A stretch of 64,000 nt of DNA, taken from a virus. Both the position numbers and the translations under genes were made by a program. A model generated the notes under the pieces. The model made no database searches and had not been told where the DNA came from. It worked only from the letters and a program-made list of their open reading frames with translations. The stretch lies in IMG/VR virus record IMGVR_UViG_3300045988_162434, positions 1-64,000 of that record; one strand, written 5' to 3'. Positions 22,225 to 41,854 of this stretch are shown here, piece after piece; within the stretch, counting starts at the first letter, position 1; each line of letters starts with the position of its first letter.

Positions 22225-22923
22225 GCTCTTAAAAGATTTTATTCCTCTTCTTTTTCTACTTTCCATACAAAACCATATGCGGTGTTGCGTTTTCCATTAG
22301 CTGCTTGGCTAATATGAGAACCACCACGTTCAACATTTATTGCTCTTGAGGCATCAGCATAACTAGAATATGTATTTAAATACTCACCATTTAAAGAATA
22401 TTGTTTTATTTTAATCACTTCTTTCTTAAAAAGAATTTTGTTTAAATTTTCTTTTTGTTCTTTTTGCTCTCTTTCATCATAAGAGATTTTTGAAAGAGTT
22501 TTTAAAAGCGTGTAATCAGATAATAAATCTCCAGTTTGATTACAAGAATTTTTTTTAAACAACAATTTTTTAGAGCTAATTCCACATTGACCAACAGGAA
22601 TTAAATAACATTGATTATTGTAATAAGTAGCAAAAACATCTATATCTTTTTCTGAATAAGAATGTTGAACACTACCTTGAGCAGATAAATGAGTACTTTT
22701 TGTATTAAATACAATTCCATTATTTTCCTCTCTGCAAGTTTTTACTTGCACTCTTAATAATTTACCTTCAATATCAGCAATAAAATCATATCGACAATCT
22801 TCAGATAAAGGAACTGATACATTATATCCTAATTGCGTAAAACTTATTTGACATTGAAGTTCTGTGGTAAGTCCTTTAATTTTTGTTTCTTGTAGCATAG
22901 AATGTATATAATATCTTTATTAG
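22225..22923 (-). mobile_element. Intervening sequence (about 699 nt) splitting tRNA-Ser(GCU) between anticodon-loop positions 36 and 37; encodes an endonuclease
   Basis: The flanking halves reconstitute a canonical type II tRNA (acceptor GCCAGTA/TGCTGGC, loop TTGCT|AA). The insert ends ...TTTTAAGAGC. Confidence 0.55.
22239..22898 (-). CDS. PD-(D/E)xK-type homing endonuclease with a C-terminal NUMOD4-like DNA-binding domain
   Basis: 219 aa. The N-terminus GLTTELQCQISFTQLGYNVSVPL...YDFIADIEGKLLRVQVK (D...E.K) is paralogous to ORF 25912-26340. The C-terminus GEYLNTYSSYADASRAINVERGGSHISQAANGKRNTAYGFVW matches the NUMOD4 pattern (..F.S..EAA......I...L.GK.K.A.GF.W). Confidence 0.6.
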   Translation of the reverse strand: MLQETKIKGLTTELQCQISFTQLGYNVSVPLSEDCRYDFIADIEGKLLRVQVKTCREENNGIVFNTKSTHLSAQGSVQHSYSEKDIDVFATYYNNQCYLIPVGQCGISSKKLLFKKNSCNQTGDLLSDYTLLKTLSKISYDEREQKEQKENLNKILFKKEVIKIKQYSLNGEYLNTYSSYADASRAINVERGGSHISQAANGKRNTAYGFVWKVEKEEE

Positions 22924-23225: not shown

Positions 23226-23296
23226 TATGTGTATTAGGATTCGAACCTAAACTTAAAGTTTAAAACTCTTTTGTGCTACCTTTACACTATACACAT
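23226..23296 (-). tRNA. tRNA with ambiguous anticodon: UUU (Lys) or UUA (ochre-suppressor reading), depending on the fold
   Basis: Acceptor ATGTGTA/TACACAT is perfect, with T-arm TTAGG-TTCGAAT-CCTAA. The anticodon region AAAGAGTTTTAAACTTTAAG folds two ways. The first, AAAGA-GTTTTAA-ACTTT, gives UUU. The second, AAGAG-TTTTAAA-CTTTA, gives UUA. Confidence 0.45.
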
Positions 23297-24769: not shown

Positions 24770-25402
24770 ATATTTAATATTCTCAATAAAAACAAAATAG
24801 AATAGTCCTTCGACTTACTATAACATATCTTCAAAATTATTACTCTACATAGGAGATAGAGGCTGAGCAAGGCTAGCTAATTCCTTACTTCTCTACCCCA
24901 GCATAATTGCCATATCTATGACAGGATTGACTACCTGCACCTTTCACTTAAACCATTCAGCATATACTTTTATAATTAAGAATTTTCCTCATTCTTTAAT
25001 TCAAATTATCAACTACTTTGCATTAAGCTACTTAGAGTTGCATACAGTTCTTATATCAACATTTCTGTTGTTTCATTGCAAAACGGATTATTGGTATTTC
25101 CTAGGATTGCTACTGGGTACCACCCCGATTTAGCCTAACTAGGAGAGGGAGTGATTAAACTCCTTTTTATTGTTCCGCCGAACCGCATCCTGAGCTATTT
25201 TGCGATATATCTAGTGCCATGACTTTACTTTGGGTTTCCAACCTCTTCATTTCAGTATCACTACTTTCAATGCGGACCACTATCCACAAGTATCCTTGTT
25301 TCGTTCGTGCCGAGCTCTTTTCGCCATGCCTTAGCTGTGTGGTTAGTACATCTGCACTAAGATATTCATTTTTGTTTTTACTGAGAATATTAAATTTTTA
25401 AA

Positions 25403-25475
25403 TGCTGCCCCTAGGAGTCGAACCCAGTGTCATCGGATATAAGCCGATTCCCCAAAACCGTCGAGGACAAGCAGC
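25403..25475 (-). tRNA. tRNA-Ile (anticodon UAU, AUA-reading)
   Basis: Acceptor GCTGCTT/GGGCAGC, D-stem CCTC/GGGG, anticodon arm ATCGG-CTTATAT-CCGAT (perfect), T-arm CTGGG-TTCGACT-CCTAG. Confidence 0.55.
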
Positions 25476-38617: not shown

Positions 38618-38944
38618 ATGGATTATTTTAATAGATGTAATGATGAAGAGATGGGTGGGATCAGCTATTGTAGCTGTGATTTGACCTCAACCGGTCTTAC
38701 CACTAATCGAATATCGAATATTAAGTTTGGCGATTTAGCACTGGATAGAGGCAATATAACAATAGACAAATATGATACAGCAATAAATGACTTGTCTGAA
38801 CGATTAAAAAAGGTATCTGGTGATTATTATATTTTAACAGAAAAAATAAAAAACTTATTTAAACAAGAGAGAAGCAATGAATTAAGTGAGTGGCGGGAGT
38901 TTGACTTAGAGGCTGCTACAGGGAGAGAATTTGAGACACGATGA
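38618..38944 (+). CDS. hypothetical protein; first gene of the plus-strand island
   Basis: 108-aa ORF; an RBS GGAGGGAG precedes the ATG. Confidence 0.35.
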   Translation: MDYFNRCNDEEMGGISYCSCDLTSTGLTTNRISNIKFGDLALDRGNITIDKYDTAINDLSERLKKVSGDYYILTEKIKNLFKQERSNELSEWREFDLEAATGREFETR

Positions 38945-39144
38945 GTTGGGTTATTATTTTGATTTATATAGCGATAGCTATTGTTAGTTTGTATTTTGGA
39001 TTTCGTACGGGAGTTAAATTGATTGTCATGGCGATCCGCAAGAATCCAAATAAAATGTTGACAGCAATGGGAATAAGAGTAGTAAGGAGAGTTGAACATG
39101 AAGATACCACAAAGCGTGGCTCGCGCGATAATAAGAATACATGA
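38941..39144 (+). CDS. small membrane protein
   Basis: 67 aa with an N-terminal TM helix and basic tail; its start overlaps the upstream stop. Confidence 0.3.
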   Translation: MSWVIILIYIAIAIVSLYFGFRTGVKLIVMAIRKNPNKMLTAMGIRVVRRVEHEDTTKRGSRDNKNT

Positions 39145-39255
39145 TTTCATTATTTATAGAATTTGGACAAAATTCTAAACTATGTGTTGGGCAAAAGCCG
39201 ATAATTTGTTTGTAATTGTTTACAAATATAGTATAATGAAAGAGAAAGGAGGATT

Positions 39256-39423
39256 ATGGAATTGAATCTTCAAGAAACATGTCAGCGATTGAGGCTGAGT
39301 GAGTCGACTCTACGAGAGGCGTTTCCGCGCACTGTTAGAACTTTAGAAAAGCAAGGTATTAAATTGACTAAGGTTGGCAGAGGGCAAAATGCAGATTATA
39401 CTATTGAATATGTAAACAAGGAG
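39256..39423 (+). CDS. small HTH DNA-binding protein (Xis/MerR-like); below the ORF-track size cut-off
   Basis: Read by eye: 55 aa MELNLQETCQRLRLSESTLREAFPRTVRTLEKQGIKLTKVGRGQNADYTIEYVNKE. An AAGGAGG RBS lies 6 nt upstream. ...CQRLRLSESTLRE is a typical HTH. Confidence 0.4.
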
Positions 39424-39431
39424 TGATTTAA

Positions 39432-39614
39432 GTGCCAATAAGAACCAAATATAAAACCATTTATTCTTTAAGAGTAAGGATGCTTTTAAGGGATATGGGT
39501 TTTGAGCCTCTATTAGAGAAAGATAATATATATAGATCTGGATTGAAGTGCTGGATATATGAAGTTACAGATAATTTTAATAAAGCTCTTGATAAAATAT
39601 TAGGGGGTAATTAA
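39432..39614 (+). CDS. hypothetical protein
   Basis: 60-aa ORF. Confidence 0.25.
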   Translation: MPIRTKYKTIYSLRVRMLLRDMGFEPLLEKDNIYRSGLKCWIYEVTDNFNKALDKILGGN

Positions 39615-39615
39615 A

Positions 39616-39903
39616 ATGAAAGCTGTAACCACAGATAGACCAGTTAAGTATGAGCCGGGAGAATTTTTTCAAATTTCAAATAAAGGTTTGAAGGCAGCAG
39701 CTAGTCTTAATAATAATGGATTATTATTGTGGTTATATTTGTGTAAATTTAAGAATGGTACTAAGTGGAAGATAAGCCCGCAGGCTATTAGTAATGAACT
39801 GGGGATAACTTTAGATAAAGCTAAGAAGGTTTCAACTATTGGATACCAAGAATTAGTTGCAGCAAATTTTATTAGGGATGATGTGTTCTACGCGGACGGT
39901 TAA
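39616..39903 (+). CDS. hypothetical protein with a possible winged-helix motif, immediately upstream of the iteron array
   Basis: 95 aa containing ISNELGITLDKAKKVSTIGYQELV. Confidence 0.3.
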   Translation: MKAVTTDRPVKYEPGEFFQISNKGLKAAASLNNNGLLLWLYLCKFKNGTKWKISPQAISNELGITLDKAKKVSTIGYQELVAANFIRDDVFYADG

Positions 39904-39906
39904 ATA

Positions 39907-40066
39907 AAAGTGCTAAAATGGCACTTTTTAGATACAAGGAGTCTATTAAAAAGTGCTTAATCGGCACTTTTATATACAAGGAAAAGTGCTTATTAAGCAC
40001 TTTTTAATGAGCAGAAAGTGCTTAATTGGCACTTTTTTCTAAGGAAAAGTGCTTAATCGGCACTCT
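39907..40066. repeat. array of 5 palindromic 22-bp repeats AAAGTGCTTAATCGGCACTTTT (iteron/operator-like)
   Basis: Copies at 39907-39929, 39949-39971, 39983-40006, 40016-40039 and 40046-40066. Each is an inverted repeat (AAGTGC...GCACTT), spaced 30-42 bp. Confidence 0.75.
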
Positions 40067-40108
40067 AATATATAAATAGAGAATAAATACTAAATAAATA
40101 AATAGACG

Positions 40109-40266
40109 GTATAAATAATCTTTACGTAGTTCGCTTCGCTCACTACTCCAAGATTATTTATACCTTTAGGCGCGGCGTGGTGATGTAATGTTACAAAGGG
40201 GCCGGCGTAAAGAGATTAAAACCTTGAAATAATGAGCGAAGCGAATTATGGAATGGTTTTAATCTC
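40109..40266. repeat. nested inverted repeats (three interleaved IR pairs)
   Basis: IR-A GTATAAATAATCTT at 40109-40122 pairs with AAGATTATTTATAC at 40150-40163. IR-B TTCGCTTCGCTCA at 40130-40142 pairs with TGAGCGAAGCGAA at 40233-40245. IR-C GAGATTAAAACC at 40213-40224 pairs with GGTTTTAATCTC at 40255-40266. GC-rich islets lie between them. Confidence 0.7.
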
Positions 40267-40313
40267 GTTCCTATATTTAATAGGTTACTACTTTTTTAAC
40301 ATTTTTCTTAGAG

Positions 40314-41126
40314 TTGATTGCTCAATTAAGTTGGAGTAAAGGAGAAAAAAGAATGGATATTAGAAAGAATTATGCCTTTTGGTGTGATAAAGATGATGTA
40401 AAAGATGTGTGCAATAGAGTATATGATTTGTTAGATAAAGATGTCGTTGATGCAAAAAGTAATACTATGATAGTTTTTAAGAATAATGATTGTTGGTTCT
40501 TTTTAGATGTTGGTTTTAATTGTATGGATGGACTCTTTGATGTTAGTTTTGTTGAAGTTGGGTGTGAGAATAAAAAACAGCTTAGAATGATTAAGCGTAG
40601 TAATAAAAAATATCCTGTTGCACAAAAAGCTGTTTATAAGTTAGATTATAGTGATGATGATAAGCTGAAAAAAAGTATATTGATGCCTGAATATTTTGAG
40701 GAAATAAATAGAAAAGATATAGTAGGATATGGTGTAGTAAAGAGAGAATTAGCTGAAAGCTCAAATGTAAATAAATATCAAAGAAGTATATTAAGTAGAA
40801 ATATTGGTATAGGATGTATCAGTAAAGAAAATATGGATATAGTGAGAGAAGAGTTAGTTAATAGTTTAGATGTAGAATATTATTCAGAAGATGTTATTGT
40901 AACAACAGATGGATCTTTTATAAAAATTTTTCAATTAGGTAATGAGAATATTAGAGGGTATAGATTTGGAGAAGCATATATTGAAGAGGGGTATGATAAT
41001 ATGGATTTTATCATTGCTTGTGTAAGACCTAAGTTAATATATAATCCATATAATATTTATATATTAGATATTGATGATGTGGCGGAGAGTATTATGAGGC
41101 CGCAGCGGTTCAGTGGAAGATTTTAG
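40314..41126 (+). CDS. hypothetical protein
   Basis: 270-aa ORF; the likely true start is Met-14 (MDIRKNY), which follows the RBS GGAGTAAAGGAG. Confidence 0.35.
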   Translation: MIAQLSWSKGEKRMDIRKNYAFWCDKDDVKDVCNRVYDLLDKDVVDAKSNTMIVFKNNDCWFFLDVGFNCMDGLFDVSFVEVGCENKKQLRMIKRSNKKYPVAQKAVYKLDYSDDDKLKKSILMPEYFEEINRKDIVGYGVVKRELAESSNVNKYQRSILSRNIGIGCISKENMDIVREELVNSLDVEYYSEDVIVTTDGSFIKIFQLGNENIRGYRFGEAYIEEGYDNMDFIIACVRPKLIYNPYNIYILDIDDVAESIMRPQRFSGRF

Positions 41127-41189
41127 GGCTGGGTTAAAAGGGGTGCAGGGCAATGCCGCAGCTTCAGACATTAGTTTTGAAAAATGATC

Positions 41190-41219
41190 TGAAAATTCGA
41201 GGCTCTGCCTCGAGCTCCC
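41190..41219 (+). terminator. intrinsic terminator
   Basis: Hairpin CGAGGCTCTGCCTCG followed by CCCTTTTTGTT. Confidence 0.5.
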
Positions 41220-41269
41220 TTTTTGTTATATGTTTGGCTATTGTTTTATATTAGAGAGGAGAAATAGTT

Positions 41270-41590
41270 ATGTTTAATACAGAGATTGTTGCTAAGGATA
41301 TTGATGGTATAAAGATGCAGTTGAGGAAGGCATATGATGGTGATGTGCCGGCGGGTTTGGCTGTTTTTTATTGGTTAAAGAATAATGGTATAGGGATTAG
41401 AGATAGGAATGGTGAGATTGTTAGAGATGAGGATTTATATAGTTTTTGTATAAAATATGGTGCGAGTGTTGATAGGGCTATTGTTACAGCGAAATATGAA
41501 GGTGTTAGTAATGAAGCTGATAGGATGTTTAGAGAACAGGTAAGGAATTGGAGTTGGAATGAATATGCTAAGTTTGGTAATAATAAATAG
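41270..41590 (+). CDS. hypothetical protein
   Basis: 106-aa ORF; an RBS AGAGAGGAGAAA precedes the ATG. Confidence 0.35.
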   Translation: MFNTEIVAKDIDGIKMQLRKAYDGDVPAGLAVFYWLKNNGIGIRDRNGEIVRDEDLYSFCIKYGASVDRAIVTAKYEGVSNEADRMFREQVRNWSWNEYAKFGNNK

Positions 41591-41823: not shown

Positions 41824-41854
41824 AGTCCCTGTACACATTACATGTACAGGGACT
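41824..41854. terminator. bidirectional terminator between convergent genes
   Basis: Perfect 12-bp stem AGTCCCTGTACA-cattaca-TGTACAGGGACT with A/T-rich flanks. It separates plus-strand gene 41270-41590 from minus-strand gene 41867-42310. Confidence 0.6.

Follow-up and report, generated by a model that had tools for sequence, protein, structure and literature searches.

An iteron-type repeat array behind a single-domain winged-helix gene: a candidate replication origin module in a large gut phage

The stretch of DNA analyzed here, hereafter called the window, comprises 64,000 nucleotides of the IMG/VR virus record IMGVR_UViG_3300045988_162434 (positions 1 to 64,000). Between positions 39209 and 40269 it carries a small operon, an array of five palindromic repeats, an AT-rich tract and two hairpins, and with moderate confidence we regard this combination as a self-contained iteron-type origin-like module featuring a candidate minimal single-domain initiator. 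After testing, this is the best-supported explanation, because the array adjoins a winged-helix gene, the architecture recurs in eight lineages, sites and protein co-vary, an AT tract follows the repeats and the matches of the protein are initiator-like. An earlier note made from the sequence had proposed either a replication origin or a multi-operator immunity region; the former part finds partial support as an iteron-type origin, while the latter is unsupported. For uncultivated gut phages, the site at which replication starts is hardly ever known; the module provides a precise candidate consisting of a protein, a 17-bp site, a tract and hairpins.

The repeat array

The five copies of AAAAGTGC-N7-GCACTTTT are located at positions 39907-39929, 39950-39972, 39983-40005, 40015-40037 and 40046-40068. 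The earlier note had described five dyads of the type AAGTGC...GCACTT in this region and these were confirmed, with start-to-start distances refined to 43, 33, 32 and 31 bp and a spacer of 7 nt between the half-sites. A pattern with an 8-nt spacer (AAGTGC-N8-GCACTT) misses all five copies and was discarded. Four copies match AAGTGC-N7-GCACTT perfectly and one contains a single mismatch. Elsewhere in the 64 kb the dyad does not occur with up to one mismatch, and the observed count was reached in none of 100 shuffles. Tandem Repeats Finder describes the array with a period of 32, 3.6 copies and a score of 144. Interpretation as a CRISPR-like array was rejected, as the spacers measure only 8-20 bp and cas genes are absent. 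The repeat had also been suggested for a search elsewhere in the genome: the array is unique in the window and in each full-length relative, with a single array per genome in both of these (140 and 143 kb), and the repeats are not dispersed genome-wide.

Conservation of sites, protein and gene neighborhood

The gene ending just upstream of the array encodes a protein of 95 amino acids (aa). An exhaustive HMMER search with this protein, combined with a profile search and covering several billion proteins, revealed a family made up of the window and seven other lineages that share 36-54% identity, lack any Pfam annotation and all reside on short metagenomic contigs. In every lineage an array of 4-13 sites with the geometry RGTRY-N7-RYACY directly follows the stop codon of the winged-helix gene. 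The half-sites read AGTGC/GCACT in the window, L013, L021 and L022, GTGT/ACAC in L011, AGTAT/GAYAC in L012 and L019, and GGTGCC/GGCTC in L014. The type of site follows the start of the putative recognition helix, which is (L/I)D.AKK in AGTGC lineages vs. EG.SK in AGTAT lineages, and is independent of the first gene of the operon: the window, with a helix-turn-helix (HTH) protein, and L021, with a ribbon-helix-helix (RHH) protein, share the same half-site. A winged-helix gene next to the array and co-variation of site sequence and protein are both found across the eight lineages, and the array is very probably the cognate DNA-binding array of the adjacent winged-helix protein.

The distances between neighboring sites fall mainly into classes of 21, 32-33, 43-44, 54 and 64 bp, i.e. 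multiples of about 10.7. A Rayleigh test on 38 spacings, which are not independent of each other, gave p values of about 0.001-0.003 for periods of 10.5-11 bp. A 43/44-33-32 layout is common to the window, L021 and L022. Spacing in multiples of the helical repeat points at a constraint that acts on double-stranded DNA. As is typical of iteron origins, at least three helix-phased tandem repeats of about 17-22 bp are present, although L012 is off phase.

The genes upstream of the array are conserved, with a DUF5659-like gene always and a small RHH or HTH gene usually present, while those downstream are unrelated between lineages; in L022 the next gene even lies on the opposite strand. This neighborhood identifies the conserved unit as the small regulator, the DUF5659-like gene, the winged-helix gene, the site array and the AT tract. 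Near-identical versions of the module are present in the two full-length IMG/VR genomes and in several human-gut metagenome contigs. Among these natural variants, L007, L018 and L075 have lost hairpin B together with the sequence up to the next ribosome-binding site, and most of a 257-aa downstream gene is deleted in L008. All variants retain the array, the AT tract and hairpin A. In L075 (8700-8745, corresponding to window 40002-40018) iterons 3 and 4 are separated by an exact inversion of the 17-bp spacer found in the window (TTTTTAATGAGCAGAAA to TTTCTGCTCATTAAAAA), with unchanged spacing, as would be expected if adjacent palindromic sites had recombined.

Several further observations concern the family. 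In L011 (80-466) the gene for P0002 was called in the database with a length of 128 aa, extending past an in-frame TGA into the array, and the locus is marked as not translating to the query; the L011 protein probably ends with ...FYAEPLEKVSK, and in this lineage the array therefore overlaps the 3' end of the gene. Similarity to the N-terminal part of the 95-aa protein was also seen, in five to six separate segments, in two very large proteins, P0005 (2910 aa, E 8e-7) and P0007 (2486 aa, E 5e-4). A scan of JGI/ENA metagenomes retrieved near-identical copies only, searches for the syntenic region with the neighboring 147-aa and SprT-like proteins returned only the two close relatives, and tblastn of the 95-aa family against 45 loci around a vault protein-like gene (see below) found nothing. 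IMG/VR matches to a two-site pattern (L003-L006) proved unrelated, and a generic three-site scan of IMG/VR yielded unrelated tandem repeats (L122-L124) and otherwise only the two close relatives.

The operon and its winged-helix protein

Three tightly packed open reading frames (ORFs) of 56, 60 and 95 aa follow positions 39209-39237, which probably serve as promoter and operator of a three-gene operon, as judged from their motifs (Table 1). The earlier note had placed a small HTH gene and a putative winged-helix gene upstream of the repeats. The second assignment gained support, since AlphaFold2 run with a five-sequence alignment predicts a winged helix for the 95-aa protein with a predicted local distance difference test (pLDDT) score of 82.8 and a predicted template modelling (pTM) score of 0.75, two of the five models being confident; a single-sequence model reached a pLDDT of 46, and the alignment-based model was used. 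The first assignment is less clear, as the 56-aa ORF yields weak HTH matches only. Its position is exchangeable: L014, L019, L020 and L021 carry an RHH_1 protein there. In L075 (7538-8119) the 56-aa gene is replaced by a gene for a 193-aa protein with an N-terminal HTH (weak HTH_36 and HTH_24 matches) and a C-terminal GIY-YIG-like motif, which looks like a homing-endonuclease-type insertion or replacement at the first position of the module. The second gene is more constant. A DUF5659-like ORF precedes the winged-helix gene in L011, L012, L013, L014, L019, L021, L022, L075 and L076, and a weak Pfam match to PF18903 (DUF5659) was obtained for the ORF from L019/L020.

Foldseek searches with the 95-aa model gave no significant match in the Protein Data Bank (PDB) or BFVD, and PDB sequence searches with the single sequence and the profile returned nothing. 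Weak viral Foldseek matches include several RepA-like, RepL and other replication proteins. At the sequence level, three of the eight family members match phrog_270 (replication initiation protein, best E 0.0035), two match phrog_345 (replication initiation O-like, E 0.002) and one matches phrog_186 (DnaD-like helicase loader), all weakly; Pfam HTH_36 is also touched. Each of these fold and sequence matches is weak, and all of them point at replication initiators rather than repressors. We consider the 95-aa protein the probable binder of the array and a candidate for an origin-binding mini-initiator.

An array of binding sites behind the gene for its binder can be explained in other ways. An immunity operator region was dismissed: positions 39900-40350 are devoid of sigma-70-like promoters on either strand, the downstream genes vary and may even face the array from the opposite strand (L022), and neither a repressor/integrase context nor lysogeny genes are present. 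Variable downstream genes and the lack of a promoter rather indicate a cis-acting site that is tied to the upstream operon and not an operator of the genes that follow. A related but different idea is that the winged-helix protein coats the five sites and acts as a transcriptional roadblock or insulator, blocking or tuning read-through from the promoter of its own operon into variable cargo genes (the 257-aa and 106-aa ORFs) and playing no role in replication. Such a function is conceivable for a generic winged-helix protein that lacks an effector domain. Between the array and the 257-aa gene there is no promoter-like site, and L007 and L075 lack the sequence from hairpin A to the next ribosome-binding site, such that the downstream genes must be transcribed through the array. 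Each site is moreover a weak hairpin followed by a T-run, which might add pausing. We nevertheless consider a roadblock unlikely. It does not fit L022 with its opposite next gene or L012 with at least 200 bp of further non-coding repeats, and up to 13 sites over 450 bp, as present in L012, would be unusual for an operator. It also assigns no role to the AT tract and the strand-symmetric pair of hairpins, and the fold and weak sequence matches favor initiators over repressors. Should the array be a control element instead, it would be a clean case of co-evolution between a DNA-binding protein and the array of its sites.

Winged-helix proteins are also known from other settings. TubR, a winged-helix protein of about 100 aa, binds the centromere in type III partition systems, and the winged-helix protein gpNu1 of lambda recognizes repeated cosB sites. 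The array could accordingly be a centromere-like partition site of a plasmid-like prophage state (comparable to sopC, parC or tubC) or a packaging-recognition site, with the winged-helix protein as adaptor. The F plasmid sopB-sopC region shares the layout of a dyad array directly following a small gene for a DNA-binding protein, and the site in the window is cis-acting and unique in the genome. This explanation appears improbable, however, since no ParA-, ParM- or TubZ-like NTPase is encoded in the surrounding gene island or in the flank of any relative, integrase or lysogeny genes were not seen in the window, the genes for terminase and portal protein are 18 kb away, and the conserved AT tract is left unexplained.

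The AT-rich tract

Directly downstream of iteron 5 lies the 40-bp segment with the highest AT content (0.90) of the whole region. An equivalent tract with an AT content of 0.88-0.97 over 40 bp follows immediately after the last site in all eight lineages and is partly conserved in sequence, reading CAC(T/A)(A)ATATATAAT...AATAAATA. The last site of the array is degenerate in the same manner in all lineages and runs into the tract. An AT-rich element adjoining the iterons, as is characteristic of iteron origins, is thus evident from composition as well as from conservation.

Two hairpins with identical loops on opposite strands

The earlier note had listed nested inverted repeats with arms of 12-14 bp behind the array. 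Inverted repeats are indeed present. They are larger than stated and better described as two paralogous hairpins on opposite strands, A and B. The repeat underlying hairpin A (I6) has arms of 23 nt at 40108-40130/40142-40164 (87%), that underlying hairpin B (I5) has arms of 25 nt at 40209-40233/40245-40269 (80%), and a third inverted repeat (I1, arms of 39 nt at 40117-40155/40220-40258, 77%) connects the two and includes the perfect 13-mer pair TTCGCTTCGCTCA (40130-40142)/TGAGCGAAGCGAA (40233-40245). Both hairpins share the same layout of an outer stem, a small internal loop, an inner stem of 5 bp and a loop of 11 nt. On the bottom strand the loop of hairpin B is TCGCTTCGCTC and thereby identical to that of A, and on the top strand the two loops are exactly complementary. 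The stems differ and yet still pair, with GTAGT/ACTAC in A vs. ATAAT/ATTAT in B, and the outer stems are unrelated. Folded as DNA, hairpin A reaches -13.4 kcal/mol (z -7.2), compared with -10.7 kcal/mol (z -4.4) for the minus strand of hairpin B. The loop motif is not found elsewhere in the window. It recurs in L011, the closest of the distant lineages, where a single hairpin at the same position (597-635) presents the same loop on a third, unrelated stem. Hairpin A is kept in all close relatives. Boxes rich in TAG-G/C and related to the islet between the hairpins (Table 1) follow the AT tract in L011, L012, L013, L019 and L022.

Several of the six lineages without the loop-conserved hairpin have GGGG(Y)AT boxes in its place, with a period of about 18-23 bp. 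Direct repeats of another class than the sites, (T/A)GGGG(G)(T/C)AT combined with an A/T run, follow the AT tract in L012 (1290-1426), L019 (3540-3640) and L013 (690-725). These repeats have a period of about 18-27 bp and occur in lineages whose winged-helix protein has an acidic GF tail and which lack the TCGCTTCGCTC hairpin. As judged from the sequences, they may be binding sites for a second factor.

Stable folds invite an explanation at the RNA level, in which the repeats would be tandem weak terminators or protein-binding RNA hairpins in a 3' untranslated region and a kissing loop between A and B would regulate the downstream gene. As RNA, the individual repeats have folding energies of -6.5 to -11.5 kcal/mol and a run of 4-6 U behind them, and one is flagged as terminator-like on the minus strand. 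RNA folding z-scores for the inverted-repeat region are -6.0 and -7.3 on the two strands, the former referring to a 186-nt RNA, and the loops of A and B are perfectly complementary over 11-13 nt. Still, we consider an RNA element very improbable. The stems of the repeats consist mostly of A-U pairs with only 4-5 G/C-containing pairs, the real terminator of the island has -19.9 kcal/mol, and the U-run pairs with an upstream A-run in a manner that is not that of an intrinsic terminator. In relatives, sites spaced at 21 bp lack the T-run, and those of L014 are poor palindromes. Hairpins A and B reside on opposite strands and thus cannot both act in one transcript. Hairpin B, without which no kissing interaction can form, is deleted in natural variants and missing from L011, whereas the top-strand loop sequence is kept. 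Positions 39800-40420 did not match any Rfam 15 family at the gathering threshold, sub-threshold matches being restricted to hairpin-type (miRNA-like) models. The arms of the repeats are invariant within a genome instead of co-varying, and the spacings track the helical repeat of DNA. Taken together, helical spacing, weak RNA folds, invariant arms and the lack of an Rfam family argue for a function at the level of double-stranded DNA.

A working model for a proposed origin and points against it

The arrangement suggests the following model. Dimers of the winged-helix protein would bind the five AGTGC-N7-GCACT dyads, mostly on one face of the helix owing to the spacing of three or four turns. 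The nucleoprotein complex would then destabilize the adjoining 39-bp, 92%-AT tract. Upon unwinding, the hairpins could extrude, A from the top strand and B from the bottom strand, both presenting TCGCTTCGCTC, and their loops might act as priming or loading signals for outward synthesis, leftward via the iterons on A and rightward on B. Transcription from the operon promoter would cross the element, as is the case at lambda ori. In short, we infer that the 95-aa protein binds, the AT tract melts, the hairpins prime and replication begins here. The designation of hairpins A and B as candidate single-strand initiation (priming) signals is pure inference, and priming by the hairpins is the weakest part of the origin model. 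The module is situated at a place where the transcribed strand switches.

A number of findings weigh against this model. Its hairpin part is affected most: a hairpin with the conserved loop occurs in two of the eight lineages (the window clade and L011) and paired hairpins in the window clade only, L014 and L021 do not fold stably from the AT tract to the next gene, L013, L019 and L022 exhibit different folds there without the TCGCTTCGCTC loop, and hairpin B is missing or truncated in the natural variants L007, L018 and L075. Tracts with at least 90% AT over 50 bp are found in 29 regions of this 33%-GC genome, and the period of 37 bp in L012 is off the helical phase. The 95-aa protein is a single winged-helix domain without an effector domain. 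Most relatives possess an acidic tail ending with GF(V)F, while the window protein is the shortest member and lacks the tail. The family was not found in GenBank phages, PLSDB plasmids or GTDB genomes, and within IMG/VR the two close relatives were its only detected carriers, even though at least 45 related contigs are deposited there; it is thus not demonstrably universal in this phage group. Neither helicase nor primase nor polymerase was recognized in the window and the 10 kb adjoining it on the left. The cumulative-skew minimum and the main strand switch are located at about 56 kb. Even for the iterons of T4 oriE, which are 12-nt direct repeats without dyads, a role was never demonstrated (PMC3016281).

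DnaA boxes (TTATCCACA) are also lacking within 39900-40350, the nearest one being a one-mismatch version inside the winged-helix gene (39800-39808). Three perfect DnaA boxes are instead clustered within 47 bp at 49461-49507, where AGTTATCCACAA occurs twice in tandem and a third box is inverted. The cluster is conserved in both close relatives and lies between divergent promoters, a consensus promoter on the minus strand (~49425-49455) and TTGACA-18-TATAAT on the plus strand (49526-49555). The latter is followed by approximately 170 nt of GC-rich, apparently non-coding sequence ending at a bidirectional terminator (~49709-49735). Judged by these signals, the cluster could be a DnaA-dependent origin and hence a competing candidate, a DnaA-regulated promoter or a small RNA gene. 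Contig 159287, which contains the tandem DnaA-box 23-mer, was set aside because it has no similarity to the window.

Table 1. Positions of the elements of the module and of the boundaries of the plus-strand gene island in the window.
Feature	Position	Strand	Remarks
Left boundary of island	~38.45 kb	divergent	perfect TTGACA-17-TATAAT promoters
7-4-7 palindrome TTTGTAA-TTGT-TTACAAA	39209-39226	+	contains the -35 element; read from sequence; identical in close relatives
Promoter-like TTGTAA-16-TATAAT	39210-39237	+	10/12 match in promoter scan
Small HTH protein, 56 aa	39256-39426	+	first operon gene; weak Pfam MerR/HTH_17 matches, E 0.01-0.07
DUF5659-like protein, 60 aa	39432-39614	+	partner gene directly upstream of winged-helix gene; homologous ORF in relatives
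Winged-helix protein, 95 aa	39616-39903	+	stop codon 39901-39903, 3 bp before first repeat
Iteron 1, AAAAGTGCTAAAATGGCACTTTTT	39906-39929; 39909-39925 (core)		core AGTGC-N7-GCACT; repeat begins 3 bp past winged-helix stop codon
Iteron 2	39949-39972; 39952-39968 (core)		
Iteron 3	39982-40005; 39985-40001 (core)		perfect 23-bp palindrome
Iteron 4	40014-40037; 40017-40033 (core)		
Iteron 5	40045-40064; 40048-40064 (core)		degenerate right flank (GCACTCT), adjoins AT-rich tract
AT-rich tract, candidate DNA-unwinding element	40066-40104		36/39 bp A/T (92%); A-rich top strand, repeated (A)TAAATA motifs
Hairpin A	40108-40164	+	outer stem 40108-40122/40150-40164; inner stem 40126-40130/40142-40146
Loop of hairpin A, TCGCTTCGCTC	40131-40141	+	11 nt
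GC-rich islet TTTAGGCGCGGCG...GGGGCCGGCG	40165-40208		between hairpins; can form a small third hairpin
Hairpin B	40209-40269	-	inverted paralogue of A; top-strand loop GAGCGAAGCGA at 40234-40244
Right boundary of island	41824-41854		strong terminator, -19.9 kcal/mol

The phage and the genomic setting of the module

The window stems from a large tailed phage with genes for terminase (58679-60418) and portal protein (60913-62514), about 21 tRNAs and one ROOL RNA, and has a GC content of about 33%. Its portal protein shares 39.7% identity with that of the human-gut phage phAss-1 and 32% with those of Enterococcus phages of about 140 kb (PMC10607447). The phage is assigned to a ~140-kb lineage related to the group of phAss-1 and Enterococcus EF1; its host would be among the human-gut Firmicutes, probably a member of Clostridia. 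Between 56 kb and 1 kb, almost every gene resides on the minus strand, and the array is located within a 3-kb plus-strand island (38618-41590) in this block. GC skew flips together with the island, and in the window it merely tracks the coding strand. The ORFs of the island gave no significant match in Pfam, PHROGs, NCBIfam or PADLOC, and a nucleotide search of GenBank phages with the island retrieved zero matches. In L073 (14068-16494) and L074 (13213-15606), an insertion of about 2.4 kb with small genes (97, 87, 243 and 116 aa, two of the products appearing membrane-associated) sits exactly at the left divergent-promoter boundary of the island; these genes are absent from the window phage (~38430). 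In a relative, the region just left of the window (L077, 13085-20818) encodes an HNH endonuclease, an RNA ligase, an AAA_33 kinase-like protein, a phosphoesterase, PhoH-PIN and an amidase endolysin.

Some features of the window deserve mention in their own right. An 830-aa ORF (1331-3823, minus strand) contains domains of the Major Vault Protein shoulder and Vault_3 repeat types (Pfam E 3e-22), and at least 45 homologous loci are present among IMG/VR phages of 130-190 kb. The neighboring 486-aa ORF (5133-6593, minus strand) is a DUF7788/DUF2828 protein (phrog_850, 'RNA-binding protein'), and the ROOL RNA is located at 24785-25385 (minus strand, 275 bits). These three elements may form a phage-encoded ribonucleoprotein or cage system. 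Within the cluster of about 20 tRNAs, ARAGORN calls a tRNA with the anticodon TTA, which would read the UAA stop codon, and in addition a tRNA-Ile(TAT); these belong to a set of tRNA-like oddities at 23226-23296, 25403-25475 and 45650-45786 (all minus strand). A 137-nt tRNA-like stretch beside tRNA-Trp was matched by Rfam and may hold an intron. The distant relative phAss-1 recodes TAG, not TAA (PMC10607447). Further genes, for tRNA and RNA repair, encode a Thg1-like tRNA-His guanylyltransferase and a PD-(D/E)XK + NUMOD1 endonuclease (54655-55545 and 22239-22898, minus strand), the latter inside the tRNA cluster.

Comparison with known origin systems

At lambda ori, several dyad iterons of about 19 bp are bound by dimers of an initiator domain of the winged-helix type and are followed by about 40 bp of AT-rich DNA and a palindrome. 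The module in the window resembles this arrangement in its order of dyad iterons, AT-rich region and palindrome and in transcription through the origin. In lambda, however, the iterons form part of the O gene; the array in the window begins 3 bp past the stop codon of the winged-helix gene. O furthermore has a C-terminal domain that recruits P/DnaB, while the window protein is a bare domain of 95 aa, and the similarity to O captured by phrog_345 is sub-threshold (E 0.002, two of eight members).

Origins of Rep_3-type plasmids resemble the module in that their binder has this fold and an RHH gene heads the operon. Their initiators (pPS10 RepA, F RepE, R6K Pi; P1 oriR) contain two winged-helix domains and bind direct repeats as monomers, in contrast to the single domain and the dyads found here. 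Neither a Pfam Rep_3 match nor DnaA boxes were found for the module, and its array lies downstream of the gene, not upstream.

In oriV of the IncQ plasmid RSF1010, which has iterons and both GC- and AT-rich segments, binding and unwinding by the initiator expose the hairpins ssiA and ssiB, one per strand, for a dedicated primase (PMC8567376). Iterons, an AT-rich segment and two similar inverted hairpins on opposite strands make up a comparable layout in the window. Unlike in RSF1010, homologues of RepA, RepB' and RepC were not detected among the island ORFs and the larger ORFs of the window. The hairpin sequences are unrelated, and the pair is confined to the window clade, with a single hairpin in L011 and deletion of B in L007, L018 and L075. 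We tentatively consider, as a possible though rather doubtful extension, that the module represents a new class of minimal replicons of large gut phages, in which a single-domain mini-initiator together with its DUF5659 partner would melt the AT tract and two strand-symmetric TCGCTTCGCTC hairpins would prime as in IncQ. If true, no tailed phage would have shown an ssi-type arrangement before, and DUF5659 would gain a function. Confirmation of the origin would establish a new initiator family, bring IncQ-like hairpin priming signals to phages and offer, within about 1.1 kb, a compact ori cassette with which phages or vectors for gut Firmicutes could be engineered.

The closest parallel with regard to genomic context is T4 oriE (repEA/repEB), where an iteron cluster is likewise found in a large phage beside small early genes near a strand switch and is probably one of several initiation sites. 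T4's oriE, oriF and oriG sit at a switch of the transcribed strand (PMC3016281). The proteins of the two systems are not homologous. The module in the window thus belongs to none of these families and combines features of lambda, Rep_3, IncQ and T4 oriE.

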